A DNA stretch of 35,998 nucleotides. It comes from Candidatus Nomurabacteria bacterium. GTDB taxonomy: Bacteria > Patescibacteriota > Minisyncoccia > Phycocordibacterales > CALRBL01. The notes beneath the pieces were generated by a model. That model was not told the DNA's origin and ran no database searches. It was given only the letters and a program-made list of their open reading frames with translations. Made by a program: the position numbers and the translations under genes. The stretch spans positions 1 through 35,998 of the forward strand of contig CAWIDS010000003.1 in the NCBI GenBank assembly GCA_963834935.1. Direction: 5' to 3'. Positions 2,732 through 26,480 of the stretch are shown here, in pieces (the first letter of the stretch is position 1; every line of letters begins with the position of its first letter).

Positions 2732-3679
2732 TTACAAATTGACTCCTACTGCTTCCCTTACCTCTTTCATCTTTCGCACAGCGACAGCCCTGGCAAGAGC
2801 ATTTCCTTCCATCAGCATTTCGATTATTTCAGGAATTTTGTTTTCGAATTCCTTTCTTTTCTCGCGGAGCGGAGTGATGAATGCTATAAGATCTTCGATG
2901 AGCGCATCTTTGAGTGCCTTGTATTTACCTTTGTGTTCATGGTACAGGGCATCAAGCGATTCTTTGTCACGGAGCAACGAGTGGATAGCATAGACATTTT
3001 TTGGAATATCGGAATCTGAATCAGTGACGATAGCCATAACCTGCTTTTTGATTTCCTCATCGCTTGCAAAAAGCGGAATGGTATTGTGATAGCTCTTACT
3101 CATCTTCTGACCGTCAATACCAGGGACGGTAGCAACACTTTCCAGGACCATTGCTTCAGGAAGCTTAAAGACTTCGTGCTTGAAAACACGATTGAATTTT
3201 TCAGCGGTATCGCGAGTGATCTCGACATGCTGTTTCTGGTCCTTTCCTACAGGCACGATATCAGGACTGTAGAGCAGAATGTCAGTTGCCATAAGCATCG
3301 GATAATTGAATGTGCCGACGCTGACTTCCTTTCCTTTTGCTTCTGCGTCCTTGAAAGCGTGAGCGCGCTGGAGATATGCCATGGTAGTGATGCTATCGAA
3401 GATCCAAGCAAGCTCGAAATGCTCAGGAATATCTGATTGCTTGAAGATAGTCACCTTTTTAGGATCGAGTCCGATGGCAAGGTAGTCAAGGATGATGCCT
3501 AGAATGTTCTCCTTCATCTTTTCCTTGTCTTGGATAGTGGTCAAGGCATGATAATCGGCGATCATCACGAAGCCTTTGTTGCCGCTGTTTTGAAGATCGA
3601 CGAACTGCTTCATGGCGCCGAAATAGTTGCCGATATGGGGACGGCCAGTGGGTTTTACTGCCGAGAGGAATGTTTTCAT
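2732..3679 (-). CDS. trpS: Tryptophanyl-tRNA synthetase
   Basis: KPTGRPHIGNY (HIGH), YPMLMATDILLY, VPVGKDQKQH, KMSKS. Confidence 0.97.
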   Translation of the reverse strand: MKTFLSAVKPTGRPHIGNYFGAMKQFVDLQNSGNKGFVMIADYHALTTIQDKEKMKENILGIILDYLAIGLDPKKVTIFKQSDIPEHFELAWIFDSITTMAYLQRAHAFKDAEAKGKEVSVGTFNYPMLMATDILLYSPDIVPVGKDQKQHVEITRDTAEKFNRVFKHEVFKLPEAMVLESVATVPGIDGQKMSKSYHNTIPLFASDEEIKKQVMAIVTDSDSDIPKNVYAIHSLLRDKESLDALYHEHKGKYKALKDALIEDLIAFITPLREKRKEFENKIPEIIEMLMEGNALARAVAVRKMKEVREAVGVNL

Positions 3680-3689
3680 GGTTTGAATA

Positions 3690-4937
3690 TTATTTTTCTA
3701 AAGTTATCTTGTAAAACTGTCTCTTGCCGACGCGGATTCGGCTTTCGGTGGCGAGGGTATCAATGGAAAAAATCTCGTCTGTCTCGTTGTTGCGCACGCC
3801 TCCTTGCTCGAAAAGCCTGCGAAGCTCACTCTTGGTGGCAAAATATGGAATGAGCATTTCAAAATAGGTCTCGCCCTCCTTTGCTTGGATGCCGACATAG
3901 TCTTCTTCAGTCAATTCCTTCTTGGCGAATTTGCGCTCGAAATTTTCTTTCTGTTCTTGTCCTTCGGTAAGATTTTTTGTTTCAAGAGCGAGCAAGAGGA
4001 TTCCGAGCCATTTCTTGCATTCGAGCGGATGAGTGCCGATCAGTATTTTTAGGTCTTCGAGCTCGTTCTTGTGAACATCTGCAAATGCGATGAACCATGG
4101 AAGGATGAGATGGTCGGGAATGCTCATCACTTTGCCAAATTTCTCTTCAGCCGAAGCATTGAGCGGTATGCCATTGCCTAGTGATTTCGACATCTTTTTA
4201 CCTGAACCGTCAGTGCCTTCGATAAGCGGAGTGCAAAGGGCGATTTCAGGCGTCATGCCTTCCGAACTCATCAACTCCCTGCACTGCTGGAAGTTGATGA
4301 GTTGGTCGATGCCACCGATTTCAATGTCAGTCTTCAGCTGGATCGAATCAAGCCCCATTAGGAAGCCATAAAGCACTTCTGCTAAAGAGACGGAGTGTCC
4401 AGCAGCGAGGCGTTTCCGAAAATCCTCGCGCTGAGTGGTAGATGAAAGGGTCAGATGCTGCAGATGGCCGAAAATGTCGGAGAGGTTTATTTTAGAAAGC
4501 CACAACGAATTGAAATGAAAGTCCACCTTCTTAAGCTCGATGTAAGGGCTGATTTGCGAAGCGAAGCCTTCAGCATTTCCCTGCACCTCTTCCATAGTTA
4601 GAGTTTTGCGCGCATGCTCCCTTTCGCTCGGGTCGCCCACCATTGCAGTGAAGTCGCCAGTGATGAAGTCGATGTGATGTCCAGCTTTCTGGAACTGGCG
4701 AAGAAGCATCAGCGGTACGATATGGCCTATATGCAGGTCTTTGGCGGTGGCGTCGGTACCAAGCTTCACATTGAGTTTATTTTTTGCGTCAAGCAAAGCT
4801 TTAAGCCTTTCAGTGGTCAGAATCTGCTGGCATTTGACTTCCACGAAGCCGAGGAATTCGTCTGCAGGCATGGCAGACCAATCCTCGCTTATCCTGGCAA
4901 AAAATCGTTCAAAAAGGGTGGTGTCTAAGGGATTCAT
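3690..4937 (-). CDS. tyrS: Tyrosyl-tRNA synthetase-family protein, divergent (possible paralog)
   Basis: VKLGTDATAKDLHIGH, GDFTAMVGDPS, GGIDQ, KKMSKSLGN and a C-terminal S4-like domain (SELRRLFEQGGV...RVGKRQF). The substrate helix reads YGFLMGLD instead of YPxxQxYD. Confidence 0.85.
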   Translation of the reverse strand: MNPLDTTLFERFFARISEDWSAMPADEFLGFVEVKCQQILTTERLKALLDAKNKLNVKLGTDATAKDLHIGHIVPLMLLRQFQKAGHHIDFITGDFTAMVGDPSEREHARKTLTMEEVQGNAEGFASQISPYIELKKVDFHFNSLWLSKINLSDIFGHLQHLTLSSTTQREDFRKRLAAGHSVSLAEVLYGFLMGLDSIQLKTDIEIGGIDQLINFQQCRELMSSEGMTPEIALCTPLIEGTDGSGKKMSKSLGNGIPLNASAEEKFGKVMSIPDHLILPWFIAFADVHKNELEDLKILIGTHPLECKKWLGILLLALETKNLTEGQEQKENFERKFAKKELTEEDYVGIQAKEGETYFEMLIPYFATKSELRRLFEQGGVRNNETDEIFSIDTLATESRIRVGKRQFYKITLEK

Positions 4938-4971: not shown

Positions 4972-6324
4972 ATGGAGTCCATACAGAAAGGGCTGAAGAA
5001 GATAAAAGATAATCCCCAGCTCGTCTACACTATTTTCGTTGCCCTGCTCATCATCGCCGCTTTCATCTTCATGGCGAACATGTTCATCGGCATTGCAACC
5101 GACGCCGAAGAACGGCTGATCAATGTCCGCATCGGCTCGATACAGGATTCATTCGTATCCTTTGCGGGGGATTATCTTGATCAGCCAGACTACTTGGATC
5201 AGAAAATAAAAGACATAGTCAATGACAATCAGACGATCGAGGATTTCCGTGTGATCGAGAAATCAGAGAGTGCGACCTCTTCATCGCCATACGTCACTAT
5301 CGCCTCATCAGGCCAGAATGTGATTGCCACTTCAAGCGACGAGGATCAATTCCTCTATTCGCTTGCCGTCAGCCAGCCGGCTAATTCGCTTACTATCACA
5401 GATGAATCGAACGGTCAGAGGATTTTCCGAACCACACGCGCTATCACCGATACTTCGGGAAATGTCACCGCCGTAGTGGTCTCGACGCAGACGCTTTCCG
5501 AAGCTGACATGCAGATCGAGAACAATATCCAACGCAGCATCATCATTTTGATCGCCGTGCTCATCGTCATCATGCTTCTCTTCCTCCGCCATTCGCGCAT
5601 CATCGATTACATGTCCCTCTACAAGAAGCTCAAGGAAGTCGATCAGCTCAAGGACGATTTCCTCTCGATGGCCTCGCATGAGCTTCGCACGCCGCTTACG
5701 GTCATCCGTGGCTATTCGGAATTCATCCGCGAAGCGCCCGAGCTTTCGCCGAAGACGCTCGACTTCGCACAGAAGATCGACATGTCGGCAAAGGATCTTG
5801 ATTCGCTGGTAGCCGACATGCTTGATGTTTCGCGCATCGAGCAAGGAAGGATGACTTTCAAGTTGGAAATCGACAATCCGAAAGCGATCGTAGATGAGGT
5901 GTCGGCTTCCCTTAGAGTCACAGTAGAGGCAAAAGGCTTGAAGTTGACAACTACAGACGAAACAAAACCTGAGCAAAAGATCTCAGCAGACAAAGTTCGC
6001 CTTAAGCAGATCCTGGTTAATGTCATTGGCAATTCAGTCAAATATACCCTCAAGGGAGAAGTATCAGTTCATCAGTATATCGAGAAAGGCAGGCTCTTCA
6101 TCCGCGTCGACGACACAGGTATCGGCATGAGCGCCGAAGACCAGAAGAACCTTTTCCAGAAATTTTACCGTATCAGGAATAAGGACACCGAAAGCATCAT
6201 GGGCACCGGCCTCGGCCTTTGGATCACGAAGTCGATGGTGGAACAGATGAATGGTTCCCTTACTGTCGAATCGATACAAGGCGTCGGCTCGCATTTCCTG
6301 ATCTCCTTTCCGCTGGTGACCTAA
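4972..6324 (+). CDS. Sensor histidine kinase (two TM helices, extracytoplasmic sensor, HisKA + HATPase_c)
   Basis: H-box SMASHELRTPL, N-box NVIGNSVKYT, G1 DDTGIG, G2 GTGLGL. Confidence 0.95.
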   Translation: MESIQKGLKKIKDNPQLVYTIFVALLIIAAFIFMANMFIGIATDAEERLINVRIGSIQDSFVSFAGDYLDQPDYLDQKIKDIVNDNQTIEDFRVIEKSESATSSSPYVTIASSGQNVIATSSDEDQFLYSLAVSQPANSLTITDESNGQRIFRTTRAITDTSGNVTAVVVSTQTLSEADMQIENNIQRSIIILIAVLIVIMLLFLRHSRIIDYMSLYKKLKEVDQLKDDFLSMASHELRTPLTVIRGYSEFIREAPELSPKTLDFAQKIDMSAKDLDSLVADMLDVSRIEQGRMTFKLEIDNPKAIVDEVSASLRVTVEAKGLKLTTTDETKPEQKISADKVRLKQILVNVIGNSVKYTLKGEVSVHQYIEKGRLFIRVDDTGIGMSAEDQKNLFQKFYRIRNKDTESIMGTGLGLWITKSMVEQMNGSLTVESIQGVGSHFLISFPLVT

Positions 6325-7240: not shown

Positions 7241-7981
7241 CTACCGACGCGAGCGACGGTACCGGAGAAGCATGACGATTCCTCCGATAAATGTGACAGA
7301 GGTCGCCGGCTCAGGAACTGCTTGCGATTGAGATTGGATGGTCTGCCCCCCACCTGGCTTAAGGGTGACAAACACTCCTGTGAAGTCATTGTCTGAGGCT
7401 TGGAGAAAACCAGCAACAGGAATGAAGGTTGCCTGAATTTCCTTGATGGACGTTCCATGAAGGAGTACTGCATCCAAATCTTGTCCATCTGCGGGGCCAG
7501 CTTTCAGGTTTCCGATATTGAACGTATTGTCGTCAGTTGTGGTGACGACGACATTGTCTAACTCGATGGCGCTTCCCTGCCAATTTCCCTGGAGAATGAT
7601 AGCTGTGTCCTCAAATGAATCTGTCGGACGGTACACATCGGTGACAAAACTACCAATAGTGAGGGTAAAGGCACCACCACCGTTGTTGAGCCAGGTCAGC
7701 GGGTAGCTGGAATTCCAGATCCACTGGCCGACGTCCACATTCTCGGAATTCTGATAGACCGCTCCCAAGCCAAACTCAGGAGTAGTCTGATAACCCCCAG
7801 CGTCGATGGTACCCTGAAGACCTTCCTCAAAGCCTTGGTTAGGATCTTCGATCATCGCGACTTGAGAGCCGCTAAGCGAGGTCGCTGTTAAGCTGGCCTG
7901 CACTGTTGCACTGGAAATCATTGTGATCGCCAGTACACAAACTGCAAAAAAGAGGTTTTTCACGTCTCTGTTTCCTTTCAT
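7241..7981 (-). CDS. Secreted PEP-CTERM sorting-domain protein
   Basis: N-terminal signal peptide (..LAITMISSATVQA); C-terminus VPEPAT + hydrophobic helix + basic tail RYRRSRR. Confidence 0.9.
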   Translation of the reverse strand: MKGNRDVKNLFFAVCVLAITMISSATVQASLTATSLSGSQVAMIEDPNQGFEEGLQGTIDAGGYQTTPEFGLGAVYQNSENVDVGQWIWNSSYPLTWLNNGGGAFTLTIGSFVTDVYRPTDSFEDTAIILQGNWQGSAIELDNVVVTTTDDNTFNIGNLKAGPADGQDLDAVLLHGTSIKEIQATFIPVAGFLQASDNDFTGVFVTLKPGGGQTIQSQSQAVPEPATSVTFIGGIVMLLRYRRSRR

Positions 7982-8647: not shown

Positions 8648-9775
8648 TTATCCCCTCCCCATCAAAGCCAACACCAGCAACGATACAAGGATGAATACTC
8701 CTGCAAAGATGTATATCGCTTTGCCGGAAAGCAGGCTTGGGCGGGTTGATTGGGCAGGTGCAGGCTGGTTGGAAACGCTGTCGATGGTTGCGGCTTCGGC
8801 GCTCTTGGTGAAGTCGAGGGCGCTGCTTCGGGCCACTATCTTTCCGGAATTGTTCACCTCGGTTGCATAAGCGACGTGCTGGCCGTTATCAAGCTCTTTG
8901 TCGAAGGTATAGGTCCAGACTCCTGATGAATCCGCTTTGACGCTGACGATGATCGGCGTGCTATAGAGATAGATGGTTACTATGGCATTCGGCAATGCGC
9001 GTCCCGACATCTGGATGACATTGCCATTCTGATTCTTCTGGAGTGAGACTTTCGAGATGCTAAAAGCTGGGTTTACGGGGACGGTGGAGGTCTTTGCGTC
9101 TTCCTGCGAAGCGAATGGCAGGTTGGTGAGAGGATCGATGCCGGCAAGGACCTTCTGGCCGTCTGTAAGCTGGGTAGTCGTGCCTGTCATCGGCGTGGTC
9201 ACTGCCTTGTTCGGATTCGTGTGATAAATATAGAGCTCATCATAGTCAGAAAGGCCGTCCTTGTCCGAATCCACAAAAAGGAGATTGGCATTAAGGCTTG
9301 AGAGGGTGCTTGAAGCGGCGCTCATCTGGGTATCGAGGTCTGAAAGGACGGCAGTGATATCACTCGAGTGCTCGGTAAGGTTGATACTGACTGATGTTGC
9401 TTGCGGGGCCAAGACGCTCTGGATCTTTTTCAGATCGGCGTTGATCTTCAATCCAAGCGCTGTAGTGACCTGCGGAGTGATCGGTCCCTGGCTGAAGCCG
9501 GTGTCGACATCATTGAGAAGCGTCTGCCTCGAGGCGGTGATCAGCTTGTTGAGCGCTACTGCCGAGTTTATAGGGTCGGGTGCATTCATACTGATGCTTC
9601 TGATAGCGTCTGAGATGCTCGACTCGATGAAGCCGATGACCTGGTTCTTGGCGGAATCAATATCATTCCTGTTTTGGACGATAGGACCTGCAAGAATACT
9701 CAAGTCTGCCTGGGTATCCGCATAAGCTGTGCTAAAAGAGAAAAGAAGACAAAGCAGGATTAATGTATTTTTCAT
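8648..9775 (-). CDS. Secreted, C-terminally anchored surface protein with a TSP3-like Ca-binding motif and a bacterial Ig-like domain
   Basis: Signal peptide (..STAYA); DSDKDGLSDYDE..YHTNP motif; GRALPNAIVTIY...ADSSGVWTY..L..GQH Ig-like strand pattern; C-terminal TM helix. Confidence 0.8.
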   Translation of the reverse strand: MKNTLILLCLLFSFSTAYADTQADLSILAGPIVQNRNDIDSAKNQVIGFIESSISDAIRSISMNAPDPINSAVALNKLITASRQTLLNDVDTGFSQGPITPQVTTALGLKINADLKKIQSVLAPQATSVSINLTEHSSDITAVLSDLDTQMSAASSTLSSLNANLLFVDSDKDGLSDYDELYIYHTNPNKAVTTPMTGTTTQLTDGQKVLAGIDPLTNLPFASQEDAKTSTVPVNPAFSISKVSLQKNQNGNVIQMSGRALPNAIVTIYLYSTPIIVSVKADSSGVWTYTFDKELDNGQHVAYATEVNNSGKIVARSSALDFTKSAEAATIDSVSNQPAPAQSTRPSLLSGKAIYIFAGVFILVSLLVLALMGRG

Positions 9776-9804
9776 GCGAAAATTATATCACACTCGAGCG
9801 GCAA

Positions 9805-11460
9805 CTAGACGCTCCACATCTCGATGTAGAACTGACTACCATGATCTTTACCCTCGGATTCAGCCCACACCCTGCCTTTATGGGCTTCTATCATCTTCTT
9901 GGCCACATAAAGGCCGAGGCCGGTGCCCATGATATTAACCTTGTTGGCATCAGGCGCCCGGGTGAATTTCTCAAAGAGATGTGGCAAGACTTCCGGCAGG
10001 ATGCCGACACCTGTATCTTTGATGGCAAGGAGAATCTTCTTGTCTTTTTCCTTGGTAAGAGTGACATGGACGCTACCTTGTGGCGTGTATTTGATGGAAT
10101 TATCGATGAGATTGCCGATGACCTGCTTGATCTTTCCGCGATCGGCATGCACTTTGAAAGTGTCATTATTGTCGCAATCGAAACTCAATTGGATCTTGGC
10201 TTTCTCGGCAGTCGGCTGGTATTCGGTAACGACGGCAGAAGCAAGTTCCTTGAAGTCAAAAGTGGTGAAATCATAATTCATCCTTCCCTGCTCGATGCGC
10301 GAGATATCGAGATAGTCGCCTACAAGCACTACCATCGCTTCGGTAGATTTAAATATGATATTGACGCTTTCCTTCACTTTGTCGGATACTGGCCCGAAAT
10401 CGCCTTCAAGGATGAGCGAAGCATAGCCTTTGATAGCCCCGAGCGGGCCTCGGAGCTGATGCGAAGCGAGCGAAATGAATTCTGATTTCTGCTGGTCGAG
10501 CTCATGTAGCTTCTCATTAGCTTTGCCGAGATCCACATTCGCCTTTTCCAGCTGCTCCCTCTGCTCACTGATGGTTTCGACGAAGCGGTTCATCATGATG
10601 CTGACTGCCAGCACCATCAGGAAGACTGCGCCTCGCAATATTGTCTGGCTGAGGCTCGTAGAGAAGATGATTTCAAGCAACGATGATACGCAAAGTAGGA
10701 ATGTCAGCCCGATTACTGCCACAGCCCGAATGTTGAAAAGCTTGTGTTTGTAGATGGCATAGGAGGTGAAGGCTACAAAAGGAAAGAAATAAAAGGCGCC
10801 ATAAGGAATGTAGGTTACATCAAGAAATACTCCCGGAAGGATAAGATTGAATATGAACAGCAAGGTAAATGAGATGACAGTTCCGATAAGGATGAAGCGG
10901 TATTGACCCCTTTCTGAAACCTCGGAATGACGCATTTTTTTAACAAAAAAGATAACGCTTGCTACAAGCAAGCCGACCACTGTCAGTACAAAAAAAACGA
11001 TGCCATTCTGTACGACAGTTTTCGAAACTGAGCCATCGGGCGATACTTGTGCTATTCCGGAAAAGACATATGGCGTAAGCGTAAAAAGGGAAAGAAGAAT
11101 GACATAAGGGACTAGGATCTTCTTATACCACGAAGGGAAAGCGACTTTTTCCTCGGGAAATACGTAGAAGAATTGGAAGAACGAGAATGAATGCCAGACG
11201 CCGAGAAAAATGACAATCCGAAGAAGCCACAATACATAGACGGGGTTCGTGATCTGATAGCTCAGGTAGTTGATAAGACTCCAGAGTATCGTTATTACCG
11301 AAAAAAAGAGAAAAGAGACGTTGGTGATACTGCGCTTATTATTTATGTATATTACGAAACCGAGGATTCCGATGGCCGCGATCGTAATGCCCACAGCAAG
11401 AAGGTCAAAATTATGCAGAGGCAAGTTACCTATAATTTCTAGTATATATTGGGAAATCAT
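9805..11460 (-). CDS. Sensor histidine kinase with N-terminal multi-TM (HisKA_7TM-like) domain
   Basis: About 290 aa polytopic N-terminus, coiled coil, H-box SLASHQLRGPL, N-box NLIDNSIKYT, DTGVG, GTGLGL. Confidence 0.93.
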   Translation of the reverse strand: MISQYILEIIGNLPLHNFDLLAVGITIAAIGILGFVIYINNKRSITNVSFLFFSVITILWSLINYLSYQITNPVYVLWLLRIVIFLGVWHSFSFFQFFYVFPEEKVAFPSWYKKILVPYVILLSLFTLTPYVFSGIAQVSPDGSVSKTVVQNGIVFFVLTVVGLLVASVIFFVKKMRHSEVSERGQYRFILIGTVISFTLLFIFNLILPGVFLDVTYIPYGAFYFFPFVAFTSYAIYKHKLFNIRAVAVIGLTFLLCVSSLLEIIFSTSLSQTILRGAVFLMVLAVSIMMNRFVETISEQREQLEKANVDLGKANEKLHELDQQKSEFISLASHQLRGPLGAIKGYASLILEGDFGPVSDKVKESVNIIFKSTEAMVVLVGDYLDISRIEQGRMNYDFTTFDFKELASAVVTEYQPTAEKAKIQLSFDCDNNDTFKVHADRGKIKQVIGNLIDNSIKYTPQGSVHVTLTKEKDKKILLAIKDTGVGILPEVLPHLFEKFTRAPDANKVNIMGTGLGLYVAKKMIEAHKGRVWAESEGKDHGSQFYIEMWSV

Positions 11461-11465
11461 AAAAA

Positions 11466-12383
11466 TTATTTTTCAATCTCTCGCAAGTAATGTCCTGTCT
11501 TGGTAAAGAAGCTTATCTTGCCTGACAATGACTTTATCTGCTTTTTCGTACTATATCTTAGCATTGAAAAGACCGTATCGGATAGGAATAAGGGATATTT
11601 CCAGCCCGTTATCGATTGAGGAATCAGCGCGATCCAGCTTTTATATCCGTCATACTCGAGGCTTTGCTTGGAAATGCCACTCATCACTTCATCCAATCTC
11701 TCCTGATCCCTCTTTATGAAATGGTGCTTGAAAAGCGAATGATATGTGAGGTCGAAATAGTGCAACGGAAATTGATCCTTAAGTTTGAAAATATCATTCT
11801 TGCACAAGACGACAGCTATTCCCTTCTCATTTTTTCTGATCTCATCCAGATCATTCTGCGATAATCGGTCAAAACGATATATTTTTATGTCTTTATCAAA
11901 GAAAGTCAGATTTTCGTAGGCAATGGTGTGCGCATGCGAAGATCTGTCGATACCGACAATTATTACCTGCTGATCATGCTTGCTTCCTTTAAGCGATTGA
12001 ATCACTTGCCTATCGGCTTCCATGCCGCCCGCGCCGAGACTTGCCAAGACCATGCCTTTCTTATTTTTTTTCACAAATGCGCATATGCTATCGACTAACG
12101 GTTTTCCCAGTCCTATATTCTTATTTCTTTGCACCTCCATCAGAGGGCCGTGCATTTTCCTATCCCATTCCTCGACAGAAAAATCCGTAAGCTCGGCCAG
12201 CCTATCCCTGTCCAGCTTGTTTGCTTTTTTAAGGAGCCATGTAAGATATCCGGAAACTGTCCTTATTGAGTCAAGGAAATCCATATCCTGCTCAATCCCA
12301 TAATCCAAATCCTTATACGAAGGATCTTTTTTAAAATCCTTAAGCTTGCCTATCGCTGAATCTATTTCCTGTAGCCTATCCAT
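11466..12383 (-). CDS. Class I SAM-dependent methyltransferase-like protein
   Basis: Motif I LASLGAGG, acidic motif II IVGIDRS, then KNDIF and FDLTYHSLFKHH. Confidence 0.65.
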   Translation of the reverse strand: MDRLQEIDSAIGKLKDFKKDPSYKDLDYGIEQDMDFLDSIRTVSGYLTWLLKKANKLDRDRLAELTDFSVEEWDRKMHGPLMEVQRNKNIGLGKPLVDSICAFVKKNKKGMVLASLGAGGMEADRQVIQSLKGSKHDQQVIIVGIDRSSHAHTIAYENLTFFDKDIKIYRFDRLSQNDLDEIRKNEKGIAVVLCKNDIFKLKDQFPLHYFDLTYHSLFKHHFIKRDQERLDEVMSGISKQSLEYDGYKSWIALIPQSITGWKYPLFLSDTVFSMLRYSTKKQIKSLSGKISFFTKTGHYLREIEK

Positions 12384-12384
12384 T

Positions 12385-13440
12385 TTATTTGAATTCCACT
12401 TCAGCTTCCATCCTCATCGCCCGTGCGCTTGATGGCTCGGAAAAACCCAGGCGAAAAAGCATAGGCGTGGTGAAGCCTTCAGCGCCGAATGACTCGGAAA
12501 TGTCCTTGTATGCCCGCTTGATGATTTCCTGGTGTTCCCTTGAGAAGACTTTGTCATTTCCCGCCCAAATATTCTCCATAAAATAGAGGACGCCAGTGCA
12601 GGGCTGGACGCTGATGCCGAGCTCGGTCGCCTTAAGCCACGCGCGTTCCATCATCCTGCCAGCATTAACGTATTCCTTCTTGCTTTTACCTTTTACAAGG
12701 AAAAGAGCAAGCGCGCCCGATCTCGCATACTTCTCGGCATTCTCTTTGGCGATGACTTGCGATACTTTGCCGATTTTGTTCAGGATGTTCAACAACGGCC
12801 AGCTCTTGAAAAGTTTCACTCCTTTGAGCTGGTGTGGCAGGAATTCAAGGGTCTTGATGTAAAAGCCGCCAGCCTTCTGTTGTTCTTCTTCTTTCCAAAG
12901 GATGTGGCCATAGAAAAAATCATGCAAGGCTTTGTTCTCGAAGATGACACGCTCATTGACCGCAAGCGCTTTGCCGAGAATGCCGAGCGAAGGCTGATCG
13001 TCGATTATCTTCATCTCGCCGAAACTGCTTTCTTTGGCGGCCAGTATTAATGCTGATTTCTGCTCGCTCGTGAGCTTTTTGGAATTATAATCTTTCCTAT
13101 TTGTGTGGCGCTTCGGAATGCTTTCATAAAGGCTGTCATACTTCGATTCAGCTTTTTCAAGTGTCACGACAGCTACGAGCTCCGGCTGCCTCTCGTCAGG
13201 AAATATATCTGCTTTGGCTACATAGCCGAGCTTTGATGCACTAATGAACATATTCTCGATCAATGCACCATTTGATACATACGAGCCTTTCTGGGCAAAA
13301 TTATAGATCGATTGGTCGCGTTCAGGAAGATTGAAAATGCTGATCTTGCTTCCATCGACGAAGAACTTCCAAGGCTGACAATTCTCTCCTGAAGGAGCCA
13401 GCGTTCCATCCTTTATGATTTTCAATATGTCTTCGTGCAT
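12385..13440 (-). CDS. Nitroreductase-superfamily flavoprotein (Acg/Rv1355c C-terminal-like)
   Basis: LAPSGENCQPWKF, RHTNRKDY, GRMMERAWLKATELGISVQP. Confidence 0.88.
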   Translation of the reverse strand: MHEDILKIIKDGTLAPSGENCQPWKFFVDGSKISIFNLPERDQSIYNFAQKGSYVSNGALIENMFISASKLGYVAKADIFPDERQPELVAVVTLEKAESKYDSLYESIPKRHTNRKDYNSKKLTSEQKSALILAAKESSFGEMKIIDDQPSLGILGKALAVNERVIFENKALHDFFYGHILWKEEEQQKAGGFYIKTLEFLPHQLKGVKLFKSWPLLNILNKIGKVSQVIAKENAEKYARSGALALFLVKGKSKKEYVNAGRMMERAWLKATELGISVQPCTGVLYFMENIWAGNDKVFSREHQEIIKRAYKDISESFGAEGFTTPMLFRLGFSEPSSARAMRMEAEVEFK

Positions 13441-13456
13441 TTTTTAAGTGCTTATA

Positions 13457-14629
13457 TTATAGGCCGAATATCTTCTTGAATGAGTCAGATACGTTCTTTC
13501 TTTTCTCGACTTCCTCTGATGAAGAATAGTTCGGTATGAGTTTCTCGTCGAGCGAAAGGAGCGATCGATTCATTTCGAGCGGCTCATCATTGAGTATTTT
13601 TCGGACACAATAGGCGACTGCCGCGCCGTTTATGAGAGCCGCTCCGCCAAGCTGCGGCCAAGATACGATAGTCTTCCCCATTTCAAGGAGCGATTGCTGC
13701 ATCCGTTCAGTGACATTTTCCGGGCCGACATGCTTGGTGATCATCTTTCCTATGCCGAACTTGTCAAGACCAGTCAGAAGCTCATAGGTGACTTCTCCCA
13801 TCCTTCCATGAAAGAAAGGTGTGTTCGGATCAAGGTCATAGCGCTCAATATCAACGACAGCATTGTCGCCATTGTCAGCAGCCATTACTACTGCAATCTT
13901 GTGTTTCTTAGCCTGCTCGCGAATAAGGTACTTGACTGCGAGATTATCGAGCTCATCGATGACGATATCAAGGCCGTCAAAAAAGCGCTCGATACTTTCC
14001 TTGTTGAGTCCTTCGGGAAAGAGTTCGACAGTGGCATACGGATTTATCTCGTAGATTCTGCGCGCTGCCATTTCGACTTTAAGGATACCGAGATTGTCTA
14101 CGCCCATAAGGATGCGGTTGGTGTTAGAGAGTGCCATCCGATCCATGTCGGCGAGCTTGATATGCTTCGCTCCTCCTTGCAAAACAAGCGCGAACGCAAC
14201 GCTTGAGCCGACGCTCAATCCGCCGATGCCCACGGTGGAATTATAGAATTTATCTTGCTCTGCTTGATTGATGAGGTTCTTATTGCGCGCAGTGCGCACG
14301 AGCTGATAGTCGTCTTCGGCGAGTATGTGCACTATCTTCGAGCTCCAGGGGAAATATACCCAGTTGCCGTCATATGAAAGAGACCTGTCTGATTGGAGTT
14401 TTGCGAAATAGTCCGAAAAAAGCTTCTTGAAATCGGGCGTGTAAACAAGTGTAGGATTCTTGACCCCGAAAAGCTCAAGTTGTTCTTCCTCGTAATCGTC
14501 AATTGAAAATTGTATCTTGCCCTGGCTTATGAGCTCAGCTACTTTCTTCTGGTCTTCCTCGTTTCCTAATTTGTAAAATACCGGCTTCAGATGCGATACA
14601 TCCGCTTTGTCCTTTAATAATTGTTCCAT
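13457..14629 (-). CDS. ThiF/E1-like adenylyltransferase, Rv1355c-type N-terminal half
   Basis: WVYFPW..IVHIL....Y..VRTARN.NLI, nucleotide-binding GIGGLSVG, ADMD....SNTNR, DELDN, WPQLGG; no CxxC zinc motifs. Confidence 0.9.
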   Translation of the reverse strand: MEQLLKDKADVSHLKPVFYKLGNEEDQKKVAELISQGKIQFSIDDYEEEQLELFGVKNPTLVYTPDFKKLFSDYFAKLQSDRSLSYDGNWVYFPWSSKIVHILAEDDYQLVRTARNKNLINQAEQDKFYNSTVGIGGLSVGSSVAFALVLQGGAKHIKLADMDRMALSNTNRILMGVDNLGILKVEMAARRIYEINPYATVELFPEGLNKESIERFFDGLDIVIDELDNLAVKYLIREQAKKHKIAVVMAADNGDNAVVDIERYDLDPNTPFFHGRMGEVTYELLTGLDKFGIGKMITKHVGPENVTERMQQSLLEMGKTIVSWPQLGGAALINGAAVAYCVRKILNDEPLEMNRSLLSLDEKLIPNYSSSEEVEKRKNVSDSFKKIFGL

Positions 14630-14653
14630 GCTTTTATTCTAACACAAAACATC

Positions 14654-16132
14654 TTACTTCACCCACTTCTGCTTGATACCGACCTGGAAATGGGTCGGAT
14701 GTTCATGCGGCCAAAAAATGATCTTCGGATGCACCTTACCCGGCATCATATGAGCATTGTTCTTGTATTCTGCGTTCTTTTCCATTAGAACTTGAACGAT
14801 TGATTTAAGAAGCTTCTCATAAAGCTCCTGAGATTCGAGAATCTTGGGCTTTAATTCGATGTTTATCTCCAGGTATTCGTTCTGCTTCTTGTCATGCTTG
14901 GTATACATGGTGAATTTTCCGGTTATGTGCTCCTCGAAATCCTCGTGCAACAGTCCGGCTTTGACATGTTCAGGATAAATGATGGCGCCGTAAAGCTTGG
15001 TCGAGAGGTCAGTACGCTCGTAGACATAGACGAACGGCAGCTCGGAAATCGAATCGCTTATTCCAGCTTTCTTAGCTTCGTCTCGAAGGTCCATGCCTTC
15101 TTCCTTGAAAATCTTTTCGACATCGGAAAAATACATCACTCCGCCATTATCGCCTATCTGATAGCGCACGAGCGGCAGCACATTCCTGCCGCTGCAATAA
15201 ATGCTCTTGTTGACCGCCTCGAAATGGATGAACTCGGGAATGTACTGTGCGAGAGTAGGCAGGCGGGTTGCATCAGAAAAGAGTTTTCCGTAAAGGCTTT
15301 TTTTCTTGAGGGCAAGCCGGCGCATGAGGATACAGAGCGGCGTTTCTGTCGCCATAGTTCCGAGGTCGGCGCTGCCGTAAATATTCATGGTATCGCGGTA
15401 TGGATTCTTTACCCCGGTCTTCTTGATGATATAGTCACGGAATTTTTCCGAGAAGGCCTCAGCTGCGAAGATTATCCTGATATTATAATCATGCCAATTG
15501 ACTCCATACTCCTTTGCCTCATCGACTACGTCCTTCATGAACGGCGGATAGCCGCAAAGGACTATCTGGTCGTATTTCGATCCGATATTCTTCAGAGCCT
15601 CGAATATTTCCCTTTTATTCACGCCGGGGGTGAGGATGGTTATAGGATGGTGTCCTCGCCCAGAAATCTCCTTGAACGCCTGATAGGTGATCACTCCGCC
15701 GACCCACACTCCCATTCCGAAGCAGATGAGCACCAAAGTGGACTTGTTGTAATTGAGCTTACTGCTTTGAAGGAACATCTCATGATACAAAGAAGACTGC
15801 GAATCGATTATCTTGTTGCGGGGAAAATAGAACGGCTTGCCGGTGGAGCCTGAGGTCGAAGTCAGGACCAGCGACTGGTCGGAAAGCGAATTCTTGAAGC
15901 ATAAGTCCTCCCAGGGGTATTTTCTGAGGTAATTAACCTTGTTCACCGGCGGCACTTTGTCAAAATCAGAGATAGTCAGTATCTTCCTCGGGTCAATCTT
16001 CTCGCTTTTTATGAAATTCTTGTAAGCCTTGACTTCGTGAACGCAATTATGGAAAAGCTCCAACAACTTCCGTTCCTGTTCTTTTTTCCAAAAATCGCTT
16101 TTTTTAGTGTATATAAAGTCAAGCCGATGCAT
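14654..16132 (-). CDS. Phenylacetate-CoA ligase (PaaK)-like adenylate-forming enzyme
   Basis: TSTSGSTGKP (A3), YGSAD (A5-like), LVRYQIGD (A7), YERTD (A8-like), C-terminal GIKQK lysine. Confidence 0.88.
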   Translation of the reverse strand: MHRLDFIYTKKSDFWKKEQERKLLELFHNCVHEVKAYKNFIKSEKIDPRKILTISDFDKVPPVNKVNYLRKYPWEDLCFKNSLSDQSLVLTSTSGSTGKPFYFPRNKIIDSQSSLYHEMFLQSSKLNYNKSTLVLICFGMGVWVGGVITYQAFKEISGRGHHPITILTPGVNKREIFEALKNIGSKYDQIVLCGYPPFMKDVVDEAKEYGVNWHDYNIRIIFAAEAFSEKFRDYIIKKTGVKNPYRDTMNIYGSADLGTMATETPLCILMRRLALKKKSLYGKLFSDATRLPTLAQYIPEFIHFEAVNKSIYCSGRNVLPLVRYQIGDNGGVMYFSDVEKIFKEEGMDLRDEAKKAGISDSISELPFVYVYERTDLSTKLYGAIIYPEHVKAGLLHEDFEEHITGKFTMYTKHDKKQNEYLEINIELKPKILESQELYEKLLKSIVQVLMEKNAEYKNNAHMMPGKVHPKIIFWPHEHPTHFQVGIKQKWVK

Positions 16133-16177
16133 ATAGGGGGATTGAGTGGTTTTTGTATTGTAACAAATCCAGCATAT

Positions 16178-16873
16178 TTATTCAATTTTTCTCAAATAAG
16201 CTATCCAATAGTTCCTTTTGTAGCTTCTTCCGTTCAGGAGCGGATAGTTAGTCTTTTTCTCGAGATATATGATTTCAAAGTATCTCGAATAGAGGCTGAT
16301 AAAATCCTCGCGGCTAAAAACCCTTTCAGTTAGGCCAAGTTCATTCATGACATAAGTGTCATATTCCTTCCCCGGGCTCAACTTAAGGAGGTTCTTGGCA
16401 TTATGATCGCCGTCCTTGCATAAGGCTTTGACGAAAAAGTAGCCTCCATTTTTCAGGACGCGATAGGATTCGGACAGATATGTTTCTCTTTCCTTTTCAG
16501 CAAGCGAATTGGATGATGTGACATCAAGGATAAAGTCAAAGCTCTCATCTGCGCACGGATAAGCTTCGCCAATGCTTGCAAGCCTGTAATCAGCTGAAGA
16601 TTCCGCTTCGAGTTCCCGTGCACGCGACTTGCTGAGCTCAAGCGCTGTCCTAGAAATCTCCATGCCGAGTACTATGTTTCCGAGTGAAGCGAGATAATTC
16701 GAATTCCTTCCCGTTCCCGACCCAAGATCGAGGATATGAAGATTTTCAATCCGCAAGTGTTTTTGTTTGGCAAGAAATTTCAGGAATTTCTTGACATCGG
16801 CTTGTGGCTCGGCATTCTTGGTCATCAATTGCGGCTTCCTGTATTCCCTTTCCCATGCTTCAGATTGTGCCAT
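16178..16873 (-). CDS. Class I SAM-dependent methyltransferase
   Basis: ILDLGSGTGRN, GMEIS, FDFILD. Confidence 0.92.
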   Translation of the reverse strand: MAQSEAWEREYRKPQLMTKNAEPQADVKKFLKFLAKQKHLRIENLHILDLGSGTGRNSNYLASLGNIVLGMEISRTALELSKSRARELEAESSADYRLASIGEAYPCADESFDFILDVTSSNSLAEKERETYLSESYRVLKNGGYFFVKALCKDGDHNAKNLLKLSPGKEYDTYVMNELGLTERVFSREDFISLYSRYFEIIYLEKKTNYPLLNGRSYKRNYWIAYLRKIE

Positions 16874-17268: not shown

Positions 17269-18114
17269 CTATATTCCTTCTTTCTTCAAAGCTTCGATGA
17301 GCTTTCTTGCCTCGCGTGAAATCTTTTTCGGCATCACTACGAGAACACGGACATAAAAGTCGCCGCGCCGTCCGCGCTCATCGGGAACGCCCCTTCCTTT
17401 TACTCGAAGCAATTCCGCATTGCTGATTCCCTCCGGGATTTTCAAAGTAATCTGCCCATCAAGCGTCTCGATCTTGATTTCCGCGCCGAGAAGCGCCATG
17501 CTGACAGGAATTGAAAGATCGGTGACGATGTGCTGGCCTTCTTTCCTAAACCGCCGGTCAGCAATGACACGAAGTGTCACGAGCAAATCGCCTGGCTGAC
17601 CCCCTTGTAGCGATTCACCCTTACCTGCTACCCGGAGCGTCGTTTCATTCTCGACGCCTGTCGGAATACTGAGAGTCATTTTCTGGCCGTTTATGCTTAT
17701 TTCCTTGGTTGTGCCGAAGATCGACTCCTTGAATGTAATCTCGATATCGACGCGGATATTCTTGCCTCTGCGCACGCGGCTTCTGCCGCCGCCGAAGAAT
17801 TGGCCGAGGATGTCATTGAGGTCGAATTCGATATTCTGCCCATTGAAGTCAAAGCCGAAATCCTGAGGGTTGAAGCCTCCACCTGCTCCTGCGCCGCTTG
17901 CACCGGAAAAACCAGATCCGAAGCGGTCATATTGGGCGCGTTTTTCCGCGTCGCCGAGCGTATTGTAGGCTTCGCTTATTTCTTTGAATTTTTTGTCATC
18001 GCCGCCCTTCTTGTCCGGATGATGCTCATGCGCAAGCCTCCGGAAGGCCTTTTTTATCTCATCCTGAGTGGCATTCCGCTCAACCCCGAGTGTTTTATAG
18101 TAGTCTTTATTCAT
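17269..18114 (-). CDS. dnaJ: DnaJ co-chaperone, class B type (J domain, G/F region, C-terminal domain; no zinc finger)
   Basis: KDYYKTLGV, HPDK, G/F linker, no CxxCxGxG repeats. Start moved from the ORF-track 18135 to MNKDYY at 18114. Confidence 0.93.
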   Translation of the reverse strand: MNKDYYKTLGVERNATQDEIKKAFRRLAHEHHPDKKGGDDKKFKEISEAYNTLGDAEKRAQYDRFGSGFSGASGAGAGGGFNPQDFGFDFNGQNIEFDLNDILGQFFGGGRSRVRRGKNIRVDIEITFKESIFGTTKEISINGQKMTLSIPTGVENETTLRVAGKGESLQGGQPGDLLVTLRVIADRRFRKEGQHIVTDLSIPVSMALLGAEIKIETLDGQITLKIPEGISNAELLRVKGRGVPDERGRRGDFYVRVLVVMPKKISREARKLIEALKKEGI

Positions 18115-18178
18115 TGACAGAGTGTTATATATCACTTACACCACTTCAGTGATGCTCGTGTACAGGGTCGTTTTTTTA

Positions 18179-25163: not shown

Positions 25164-26480
25164 TTACTGCTGCTTAACAACATTTATCCCTATCTTATCA
25201 GGGTCATTGGGGAAATTGGTCATCCAGACAGGATGCAAAGTGGCGTCAGCAGAGATGATTTCCGGATACATGCTTAATATTTCCTGAAGCTGGGATTTCG
25301 ATTTTCCTGCCAAGGCTTTTTGGAGTGCTGCTTTATCAAATGAATTACCGGTCGTTAGTGTTCCTTTCAGCTCTATCAGAAGCGGCTGGCTGTTCACGAA
25401 GCCTGGCGTAGTCGAACTTGCGCTATCTGAGAGAATGGAAAGATCAAGCGACCCGAGATTGTCGAATTGGTAGGTCTTGGAAAGCTGAGAGGAAATGAGA
25501 TCGGTAATCTCACTATTGTCGAATACCATACCGACCGCAATAGCCTTTCCTTCAAGTGATGAAGTGCCGGACGCTCCTGATTGGACATCAGATGTGTAGT
25601 TGACCTTGATGCCTTCCTTGAAAAATACGTAAGACGGAGGTACTTCCGACAAGAATTCCTGCTGTATGCCTGAAGCAAGAGAACTTTGAAGTTCTAACTG
25701 CGCCTTTTGGAGGTCCGCATCGCTCACGCTCGCTGCCAAGCCTGAGAATCCGCCAGTTGTCGGAGTGACAGAGCGCGCATAGAAGCCTTTGTATTTCGGA
25801 GTGCCTTGAAAACCAGGGATAGTGAAGTCCTGGTCAGCCAGGTTGTAATTCGCACCAGGCTGATCAGCTGTAATATCTGCATTGACGCTTCCAGGAGACG
25901 GAGGCACGGTCACGGTCTTGTCGAGTCGGAAAATCAATCCTCCGCTCGTTTGAAAACGGGTATTAGCGATAAGAATCTGCGATGTTGGTCCATAATTATT
26001 GTATATAGCAATAGTTCCGGTAGCTTTTTTCTGGACATTTGCAGGCGTACCGTTGCTTGGAAGCGGAATGCTTCCATCCTTCTCGACTGTCATCAGCTTG
26101 TATTGCAAGGTTCCAGTCGCCCACGCAGTGTCGGGCGTCGAACTTGCTATGATATCGACAGGAATCTGCTCTACTTTCAAAGTAATATCAACTTCCGCCT
26201 TCTTGAAAAAGAAGAGAAGCGATCCGAGAAGCGCCATGATGCAAATGAATGCGATTGTCCACATTGCGCGGCGTGAGGAAGAAGTTTTCGGAGGGATTGG
26301 AGGCAGAGGTTTTTTTGCATTGGTTTCGGGCGGAACGCGCTTTTTTGCACGAAATTCCGCAGTCTCCACGAGCAATTCGTCGATCTTGTTTTCTTTTTTC
26401 TCGCGGAGAGGAATATTCCGGATGGTGCGCCGTTTGGAGTCGTCAGCGGGGATAATATCTTGGAAAGATTTATTTGTCAT
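25164..26480 (-). CDS. Single-pass membrane protein with an extracellular baseplate-J/gp47-like domain
   Basis: Charged N-terminal tail, TM helix (WTIAFICIMALLGSLLFFF), then ATGTIAIYN..LIANTRF..GLIFRL..ITADQPGANYN pattern. Confidence 0.6.
   Translation of the reverse strand: MTNKSFQDIIPADDSKRRTIRNIPLREKKENKIDELLVETAEFRAKKRVPPETNAKKPLPPIPPKTSSSRRAMWTIAFICIMALLGSLLFFFKKAEVDITLKVEQIPVDIIASSTPDTAWATGTLQYKLMTVEKDGSIPLPSNGTPANVQKKATGTIAIYNNYGPTSQILIANTRFQTSGGLIFRLDKTVTVPPSPGSVNADITADQPGANYNLADQDFTIPGFQGTPKYKGFYARSVTPTTGGFSGLAASVSDADLQKAQLELQSSLASGIQQEFLSEVPPSYVFFKEGIKVNYTSDVQSGASGTSSLEGKAIAVGMVFDNSEITDLISSQLSKTYQFDNLGSLDLSILSDSASSTTPGFVNSQPLLIELKGTLTTGNSFDKAALQKALAGKSKSQLQEILSMYPEIISADATLHPVWMTNFPNDPDKIGINVVKQQ

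Follow-up and report, generated by a model that had tools for sequence, protein, structure and literature searches.

The closest described relatives of the genes considered here are the oxazolone synthetases OxzB of Pseudoalteromonas rubra and TrzS (Rv1355c) and TyzB/TyzC of Mycobacterium tuberculosis, which likewise pair a ThiF-like cyclase with a monomeric nitroreductase-fold oxidase. Homologues of the Rv1355c/TrzS/OxzB type convert an N-acyl amino acid to an oxazolone (PMC12856293, PMC10404671, bioRxiv 10.1101/2020.06.11.147165); OxzB and TyzB/TyzC act on N-acyl tyrosine or phenylalanine, and the characterised pathways all start with an N-acyltransferase dependent on acyl-coenzyme A (acyl-CoA), namely OxzA, TrzA or TyzA (PMC12856293, PMC10404671, 10.1101/2020.06.11.147165, PMC12596934). 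The physiological role of the oxazolone lipids has been called "a major unresolved question" (PMC12856293). The locus reported here lies in a 35,998-nucleotide (36-kb) stretch of DNA, referred to as the window, from a Candidatus Nomurabacteria bacterium (contig CAWIDS010000003.1), in which six open reading frames (ORFs) run in the same direction on the minus strand between positions 9805 and 16873; intergenic gaps of 45, 24, 16, 1 and 5 nt, recomputed from the ORF coordinates, agree with those given in a preliminary description of the locus. Four of the six genes, encoding a PaaK-fold ligase, a ThiF-like cyclase, a nitroreductase-superfamily flavin-dependent oxidase (NTR) and a multi-pass histidine kinase, form a conserved unit, here called the module.

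As in TyzB/TyzC, the cyclase and oxidase of the module are encoded by split genes, which are collinear with the fused TrzS type, and signalling genes lie nearby, as they do at the oxazolone synthetase loci. Unlike the OxzB, TrzS and TyzB/TyzC loci, however, the module has no OxzA, TrzA or TyzA but an invariant PaaK-fold ligase, together with a dedicated kinase of the seven-transmembrane (7TM) type in the same operon, and it is found in Patescibacteria, bacteria of the candidate phyla radiation (CPR), which characteristically lack fatty-acid synthesis. In layout it also resembles CqsA/CqsS, LqsA/LqsS, RpfB-RpfF/RpfC (the diffusible signal factor, or DSF, system), agrBDCA and comQXPA, where biosynthetic genes lie beside a multi-pass kinase without an extracytoplasmic domain; the Rpf loci, like the module, include an adenylate-forming ligase. 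The enzyme chemistry differs from that of all of these systems, there is no homology beyond the generic kinase core, and a response regulator is usually not adjacent to the module, being a stand-alone receiver where one is present. No family match to CqsA/LqsA, RpfF, AgrB/D or their sensor domains was found among the module proteins in Pfam or NCBIfam, the kinase matching generic transmitter models and HisKA_7TM; the parallel with CqsA/CqsS and LqsA/LqsS drawn in the preliminary description stands as an analogy of layout but not as homology. In mycobacteria, Acg/Rv3131 next to DosS/DosR likewise place a gene of the nitroreductase-fold flavin-dependent oxidase (FDO) family beside a sensor kinase, though these are FDO-B regulon members without a ThiF partner, whereas the NTR of the module is closer to the ThiF-linked FDO-A group, and the DosS sensor is a GAF domain rather than a 7TM domain.

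The recurring order ligase-ThiF-NTR-kinase is far beyond chance. In a ligase-centred survey of 50 non-redundant loci with at least 7 kb of downstream DNA, ThiF follows the ligase in all 50, while NTR and the 7TM kinase are each found in 46; the complete order on one strand is seen in 43. In a second survey, which started from the membrane domain of the kinase in metagenome contigs, NTR lies upstream of the kinase in 37 of the 39 loci with at least 5 kb available (28 of these 39 carry the full gene set), and either NTR or the gene for a 305-amino acid (aa) protein discussed below stands immediately upstream in 48 of 53 loci. Median gaps within modules are 4-12 nt, and the four genes remain joined despite unrelated flanks (e.g. 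in locus L003). Relatives of the ligase were detected in at least 303 genomes in a scan of one genome per species; among the best 80 of these, all named lineages are Patescibacteria. A search of the literature for this module in Patescibacteria found no description of it.

The preliminary description had taken the cluster for a small-molecule signal synthase with its receptor, a reading which it made dependent on conservation of the kinase beside the enzymes, and that conservation is what both surveys show. The family scans, with structure prediction for the ligase and the 305-aa protein, also bear out its six gene calls. The signal-plus-receptor reading is strengthened and is a strong candidate, with its chemistry refined to the oxazolone type and with diffusion of the product, its sensing by the kinase and its reporting of host presence as the parts that we infer. 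New here are the combination of a PaaK-fold ligase in the place of the N-acyltransferase, a split TrzS-type synthetase and a dedicated, co-varying 7TM kinase; the restriction of the module to Patescibacteria and its breadth within them; and a methyltransferase family missed by sequence models.

Enzymes of the module

The ThiF/E1-like protein, predicted to be an ATP-dependent cyclase (390 aa, 13457-14629; Pfam ThiF, E 6.5e-25), matches the Rv1355c-family model NF005901 with 329 bits (E 5e-98) over model positions 5-340 of 722, against at most 71 bits for other ThiF families. The NTR (351 aa, 12385-13440; Pfam Nitroreductase) matches NF011424 (PRK14851, a ThiF-NTR fusion) with 219 bits, positions 377-714 of NF005901 with 183 bits and the Acg-family model NF047509 with 131 bits. 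Each of the two halves falls below the NF005901 cut-off of 476 bits, a model built for fused proteins, and their sum of 512 lies above it. When compared with one actinobacterial Rv1355c-family fusion, ThiF is 37% identical over 299 aa to residues 45-336, and NTR is 24% identical over 348 aa, end to end, to residues 377-707. The ThiF motifs GxGGxxG and DMD...SNxNR are present, and the adenylation Asp of its ELD motif aligns with the ECD Asp of the Rv1355c-family protein; in the NTR alignment the APSGxNxQPW and RxTNR motifs match up. Residues Arg540 and Gln651 of the flavin mononucleotide (FMN) site of TrzS have reportedly been shown to matter. By sequence, ThiF and NTR appear to be a split version of Rv1355c/TrzS/OxzB, collinear with both halves, in which the role of the NTR would be C-alpha/C-beta desaturation; it is more likely than not that the two form a cyclase/desaturase pair of the oxazolone type with a small molecule as substrate. 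The acyl-amide or heterocycle that the preliminary description had proposed as product would fit the conversion of an N-acyl amino acid to an oxazolone by Rv1355c/TrzS/OxzB.

That description had also stated that genes of the Rv1355c type often adjoin signalling genes, and two cases agree with it. On a Rhodococcus qingshengii plasmid (L167:1808-6010) an Rv1355c-family, TrzS-type gene adjoins a gene for a GGDEF-domain protein, mirroring the cyclic di-GMP genes that flank rv1355c in M. tuberculosis (PMC12856293), so that oxazolone genes repeatedly adjoin signalling genes. Another gene beside the Rhodococcus Rv1355c gene, used as a query with its identity as TrzA unverified, had no homologue in 164 loci; a further neighbour of a plasmid-borne Rv1355c gene, tried as a TrzA-like acyltransferase query, turned out to be unrelated.

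The ligase (492 aa, 14654-16132) has no match in Pfam or among PDB chain sequences, and its matches to the NCBIfam PaaK models are weak and confined to its N-terminal half (E 2.8e-13; scores of 49 and 39 bits, the respective cut-offs being 700 and 646). Its AlphaFold2 (AF2) model, with a mean predicted local distance difference test score (pLDDT) of 85, is closest in Foldseek to PaaK1/PaaK2, BT_0428, ClxA and 2-hydroxyisobutyryl-CoA ligase, with top matches 2y27, 2y4n, 2y4o and 4r1l and E values down to 8.5e-20. As modelled, it has the two-domain adenylate-forming ANL/PaaK fold with a P-loop and a C-terminal lysine, in common with the PaaK family including ClxA and NatL2, the latter two of benzoxazole biosynthesis; unlike that family it shows only about 14% identity, has no Pfam match and has a longer C-terminal region. 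A TSGSTGxPFYFPR P-loop, YGSADLG, RYxIGD and C-terminal lysines are invariant among its own relatives, which comprise 1877 homologue clusters, the nearest 57-75% identical and the named ones all from Parcubacteria-type organisms. We infer that the ligase activates a scavenged carboxylic acid and makes either an N-acyl amino acid or an acyl-CoA. The PaaK-fold enzymes ClxA and NatL2 form amide or ester bonds directly from acyl-adenylates, without CoA (PMC12519233, PMC9400959, PMC7204872); given this precedent, together with the absence of an N-acyltransferase and the invariance of the ligase as a partner, the simplest reading is that the ligase is the source of the N-acyl amino acid, and it probably replaces the usual N-acyltransferase.

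Two methyltransferases are encoded in the cluster as well. The 305-aa protein (11466-12383) has no match in Pfam, NCBIfam or the PDB sequences. Its AF2 model (pLDDT 94.5) matches CmoA, the CurJ C-methyltransferase domain, ChlM, Coq5 and CouO/NovO, with a Foldseek probability of 1.0 for the first four, and indicates the Rossmann-like, seven-strand fold of class I S-adenosylmethionine (SAM) methyltransferases, preceded at the N terminus by a helical extension some 100 aa long. A GxGG(M)E motif and residues G117, G119, G120 and D146 are invariant in its family, of which 46 homologues were found among 5.8 billion sequences. The gene occurs in 11 of 56 complete modules, each time directly before the kinase, which does not support the view in the preliminary description that methylation is a core step; the product is probably an accessory tailoring enzyme. 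The other, a generic class I methyltransferase of 231 aa (16178-16873; Pfam Methyltransf_11, E 1.5e-17), has no counterpart upstream of the ligase in any of 82 related loci, and weak homologues lie elsewhere in just two of them, L035 and L045. It had already been doubted as a member, and it is rejected here as part of the pathway, being unconserved and a neighbour in this genome only. In L035, at approximately 12678-14200, a generic class I methyltransferase 28% identical to this product lies between ThiF and NTR; methylation as a tailoring step may have been acquired on more than one occasion.

Many related modules carry accessory genes, none of which is found in this window. A Leu/Phe/Trp-type dehydrogenase of the ELFV family, whose best NCBIfam match is to the ScyB-type tryptophan dehydrogenase, under cut-off, immediately precedes the ligase in 26 loci, often with an overlap; aminotransferases of class I/II were seen in 10 loci and of class IV in five. 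M19 dipeptidases and GNAT proteins each form a cluster of four members, the GNAT genes on the opposite strand, and an M20 peptidase, an S66 peptidase, a pre-ATP-grasp protein and an asparagine-synthetase-A-like protein were sampled as single insertions. TrmB-family regulator genes form an 8-member cluster, and LCAT-like lipase/acyltransferases occur in two sampled loci. Taken together, these genes suggest amide-bond chemistry and reactions of amino acids that are hydrophobic or aromatic. Beside an NTR-kinase pair, alpha/beta hydrolases, LCAT-like lipase/acyltransferases among them, were seen at L121:802-3492, L127:10-2175 and L101:1728-3011; L121 has ThiF upstream, while neither the ligase nor ThiF adjoins the pair in L127 and L101. 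Scavenged acyl chains could come from such lipases. In L106, radical SAM/SPASM genes (3026-4093 and 10905-11975) flank an NTR-kinase pair.

The kinase and its co-variation with the flavoenzyme

The kinase (551 aa, 9805-11460) carries the Pfam domains HisKA_7TM, HisKA and HATPase_c. Its sensor half, encoded at 10570-11460, matches PF16927 over residues 27-244, and its transmitter half, at 9805-10569, contains HisKA (10285-10491, E 4.3e-14) and HATPase_c (9820-10143, E 1.3e-25). A hydropathy scan gave 8-9 hydrophobic segments in the sensor, joined by short loops only and with no extracytoplasmic domain, an arrangement that suggests intramembrane sensing; conserved polar residues of the sensor are S44, T46, N64, Y65 and R81. 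Among 106 module kinases, the histidine of the H box and the boxes N, G1 and G2 show conservation of 90% or more, which argues for an active kinase. Receiver (REC) genes of the stand-alone type, about 137 aa, form a 23-member cluster beside modules. In one clade (L019, L020, L022, L024 and L025) the 7TM kinase is duplicated and a kinase-REC-kinase-REC series, with REC of about 140 aa, follows a single enzyme set.

Pairwise divergence was compared across the 56 complete modules. Divergence of the sensor correlates with that of the NTR (r 0.72) far more closely than with its own transmitter half (0.41), the ligase (0.40) or ThiF (0.38), and the correlation is still 0.67 within a narrow band of ligase distance. 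With ligase, ThiF and transmitter controlled for, the partial Mantel r between sensor and NTR is 0.66, a value reached by 0 of 2000 permutations (maximum 0.25), though Mantel statistics are inflated by shared ancestry and linkage confounds them too. Cluster agreement tells the same story, with an adjusted Rand index (ARI) of 0.36-0.50 between sensor and NTR and of -0.06 to 0.13 between sensor and kinase domain. Individual kinases are mosaic, the one in L013 being 60% identical to that of the window in the sensor and 35% in the transmitter, and the one in L001 46% and 61%; such discordance points to recombination between the sensor and the kinase domain. The co-variation is suggestive of a functional coupling of flavoenzyme and sensor. 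In the agr and com specificity groups it is likewise the sensor half, and not the transmitter, that diversifies together with the biosynthetic gene, a likeness that is suggestive only.

Proposed mechanism and rival explanations

The reading preferred here, with a probability of roughly 0.45, is that the operon couples CoA-acyltransferase-free synthesis of a small, lipid-like compound of the oxazolone type to a dedicated intramembrane-sensing kinase in Patescibacteria of the Paceibacteria/Parcubacteria type. The PaaK-fold ligase would adenylate a scavenged carboxylic acid and couple it with an amino acid of hydrophobic or aromatic character, yielding the N-acyl amino acid, or else supply the acyl-CoA; in many relatives the amino acid would be supplied or interconverted by the Leu/Phe/Trp-type dehydrogenase or the aminotransferase encoded upstream. 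The ThiF-like enzyme would then adenylate the amino-acid carboxylate and close the oxazolone ring, as judged from its 37%-identical homologue, and the flavin oxidase would, by homology, desaturate the C-alpha/C-beta bond. In about one-fifth of modules, this one included, the SAM methyltransferase would tailor the product. Inside the membrane, the multi-pass sensor of the co-transcribed kinase would detect the hydrophobic product, and the kinase would signal to a stand-alone receiver, whose gene adjoins the module in some genomes and would lie at another place in this one. That the kinase is functionally tied to the enzymes is very probable; that its ligand is the product of those enzymes is a tentative proposal, with the odds slightly against it. 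A broader extension, in which the module is a diversifying signalling system throughout Patescibacteria, with an oxazolone or N-acyl dehydro-amino acid as autoinducer or host-dependent cue, a co-evolving 7TM kinase as receptor and pherotype-like groups set by the flavoenzyme and the methyltransferase, is rather doubtful at present.

CPR bacteria are ultra-small, obligate episymbionts with minimal metabolism, and to our knowledge essentially nothing is known of how they sense their partners or each other. A four-gene module found in at least 303 species-level genomes offers an entry to CPR sensing that is tractable, since it can be expressed in E. coli, and a kinase both conserved and co-varying with oxazolone-type enzymes is a direct, testable candidate receptor for oxazolones. 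The module further predicts a route to N-acyl amino acids that is independent of a CoA-acyltransferase and runs through a PaaK-fold ligase of great divergence, and with the 305-aa protein comes a methyltransferase family, restricted to the CPR, that sequence models fail to recognise. If the Patescibacteria-wide signalling proposal were true, the CPR would have its first defined chemical communication system, and oxazolone natural products their first physiological role.

Several points weigh against the preferred reading. All of its chemistry is assigned by homology, the ligase being only about 14% identical to any solved structure and the NTR only 24% identical to its actinobacterial counterpart. 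A Pfam scan detected no N-acyltransferase in the module of the window; with the enzyme that opens the characterised oxazolone pathways absent, the first step is a guess. The FDOs that have been characterised use O2, and an anaerobic way of life is common among CPR bacteria. Kinase or NTR is absent nearby in 7 of the 50 ligase-centred loci, and some NTR-kinase pairs have no ligase and ThiF within 9 kb. There is no exporter gene within the module; a hidden Markov model (HMM) built from module-linked receivers found no receiver domain in the window, and a response regulator adjoins only a minority of modules. The co-variation can stem from block recombination or from physical contact rather than from a shared ligand, and adjacency of the kinase is equally well explained by regulation of the pathway in response to an unrelated stimulus.

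This last point leads to a rival explanation that is less probable, though it deserves serious consideration, namely that the oxazolone or N-acyl amino-acid metabolite is not a signal but a membrane constituent, a redox protectant or an antimicrobial directed at hosts or competitors, and that the kinase regulates its synthesis in response to another cue, such as substrate availability, the state of the membrane or contact with a host. Kinases beside biosynthetic operons are frequently regulators, the module is without an exporter, the insertions of LCAT-like lipase/acyltransferases and peptidases suggest lipid and amide metabolism, and the tyrazolones and tryptazolones are largely cell-associated, with a role that is not known (PMC10404671, PMC12856293). 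On the other hand, the orthologous group of the kinase is found almost only downstream of the module flavoenzyme, its sensor has no extracytoplasmic domain, and it is this sensor rather than the transmitter that co-varies with NTR, which would be unexpected for a generic environmental cue. The same co-variation, strong as it is between interacting proteins, could instead mean that the kinase receives its input through the flavoprotein, in a membrane-associated NTR-sensor complex that reports redox state, O2 or a flavin-bound ligand and is comparable to the Acg/Rv3131 flavoproteins encoded next to DosS, with the ligase and ThiF just supplying the ligand. No link in the module is tighter than NTR-kinase (48 of 53 loci), such pairs occur without ligase and ThiF nearby, and the Acg-family model is matched at 131 bits; yet the ThiF-fused FDO families score higher (219 and 183 bits), all 50 ligase-centred loci have ThiF, and the methyltransferase gene, where there is one, separates the NTR and kinase genes, so that direct translational coupling is not required. 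A role of NTR as input module is considered unlikely.

Two other possibilities concern the product. The amino-acid dehydrogenases and aminotransferases directly upstream of related modules, the accessory ATP-grasp and aminoacyl-tRNA-synthetase-like ligases and the M19/M20/S66 peptidases would suit a ring derived from a dipeptide (a dehydro-diketopiperazine or pyrazinone), with the ligase making the first amide, ThiF closing the ring and NTR desaturating it like the cyclic dipeptide oxidase of albonoursin biosynthesis; enzymes of the nitroreductase family do desaturate diketopiperazines (10.1101/2020.06.11.147165). Such a product is very unlikely, as ThiF and NTR are closest to the oxazolone-forming Rv1355c/PRK14851 (329 and 219 bits, versus at most 71 for other ThiF families) and a cyclodipeptide synthase is lacking. 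Proteins, peptides or tRNA are the substrates of most ThiF-like enzymes characterised so far (PMC12596934), and the best sequence match of the module ThiF among solved structures is TcdA, which cyclises t6A in tRNA (E 1.9e-11), so that modification of a macromolecule, either a protein or peptide C-terminus in the manner of MccB or of a ribosomally synthesised and post-translationally modified peptide (RiPP), or a tRNA base as by TcdA, was also considered; it is given very little credence. The match to the Rv1355c small-molecule family is far stronger (E 5e-98), the accessory genes are those of amino-acid metabolism, the gaps are no longer than 45 nt, the module has no YcaO, ThiS/MoaD-like gene or conserved ORF of precursor size, and a search of the whole window for tRNA genes and Rfam elements found none. 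TcdA-like tRNA modification was rejected on the roughly 90 orders of magnitude that separate the two ThiF matches and on the lack of tRNA or Rfam features in the window, and a RiPP or thiazole/oxazole-modified microcin (TOMM) pathway, already thought unlikely in the preliminary description, on the lack of YcaO, of a precursor or conserved small ORF in the module and of room for one in the gaps. Activation of a sulfur carrier (ThiS/MoaD) was rejected too, as neither the module nor its immediate neighbourhood has a conserved small ORF.

Surroundings of the module in the window

The operon may start at a promoter-like site, TTGAAT-17 nt-TACAAT with an upstream TG (16157-16185, minus strand), in the 45-nt gap before the ligase gene; it is put forward on its match to the consensus alone, and scans for promoters and terminators across the region showed no enrichment over shuffled sequence (20 promoter-like sites versus 14.8 +/- 3.5 expected). 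Antisense ORFs of 240 aa (9763-10485) and 319 aa (14894-15853) on the plus strand, over the kinase and ligase genes, are in all likelihood shadow frames that do not code for protein.

The window consists of housekeeping DNA of a kind typical of the CPR. The cluster comes after a ribosomal-protein/rpoA block, GrpE, DnaK, DnaJ and a small membrane protein, and ahead of genes for a secreted Ig-like, a NUDIX and a pilin-like protein, for another orphan kinase, for a pair of class Ib aminoacyl-tRNA synthetases and for an ABC exporter. Between the ribosomal-protein block and the alanyl-tRNA synthetase gene lies a gene for a 438-aa protein (25164-26480, minus strand) with a weak match to Baseplate_J-like proteins of phages and contractile systems. 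The DnaJ encoded at 17269-18135 (minus strand, 288 aa) is without the CXXCXGXG zinc-finger domain, as is its 288-aa counterpart in L005, whereas the 357-aa DnaJ of L001 has it. A secreted protein of 246 aa (7241-7981, minus strand), with no Pfam match, has the C-terminal end ...VPEPATSVTFIGGIVMLLRYRRSRR, which looks like a PEP-CTERM sorting signal, unusual in a CPR bacterium. The second histidine kinase (450 aa, 4972-6324, HisKA and HATPase_c) is on the opposite, plus strand, and no response regulator accompanies it in the 36-kb window. The two class Ib (Trp/Tyr-type) aminoacyl-tRNA synthetase genes, encoding 315 and 415 aa, are neighbours on the minus strand (2732-3679 and 3690-4937); a tRNA-synt_1b gene also follows the module in L001 and L005, which indicates that this synteny is conserved.

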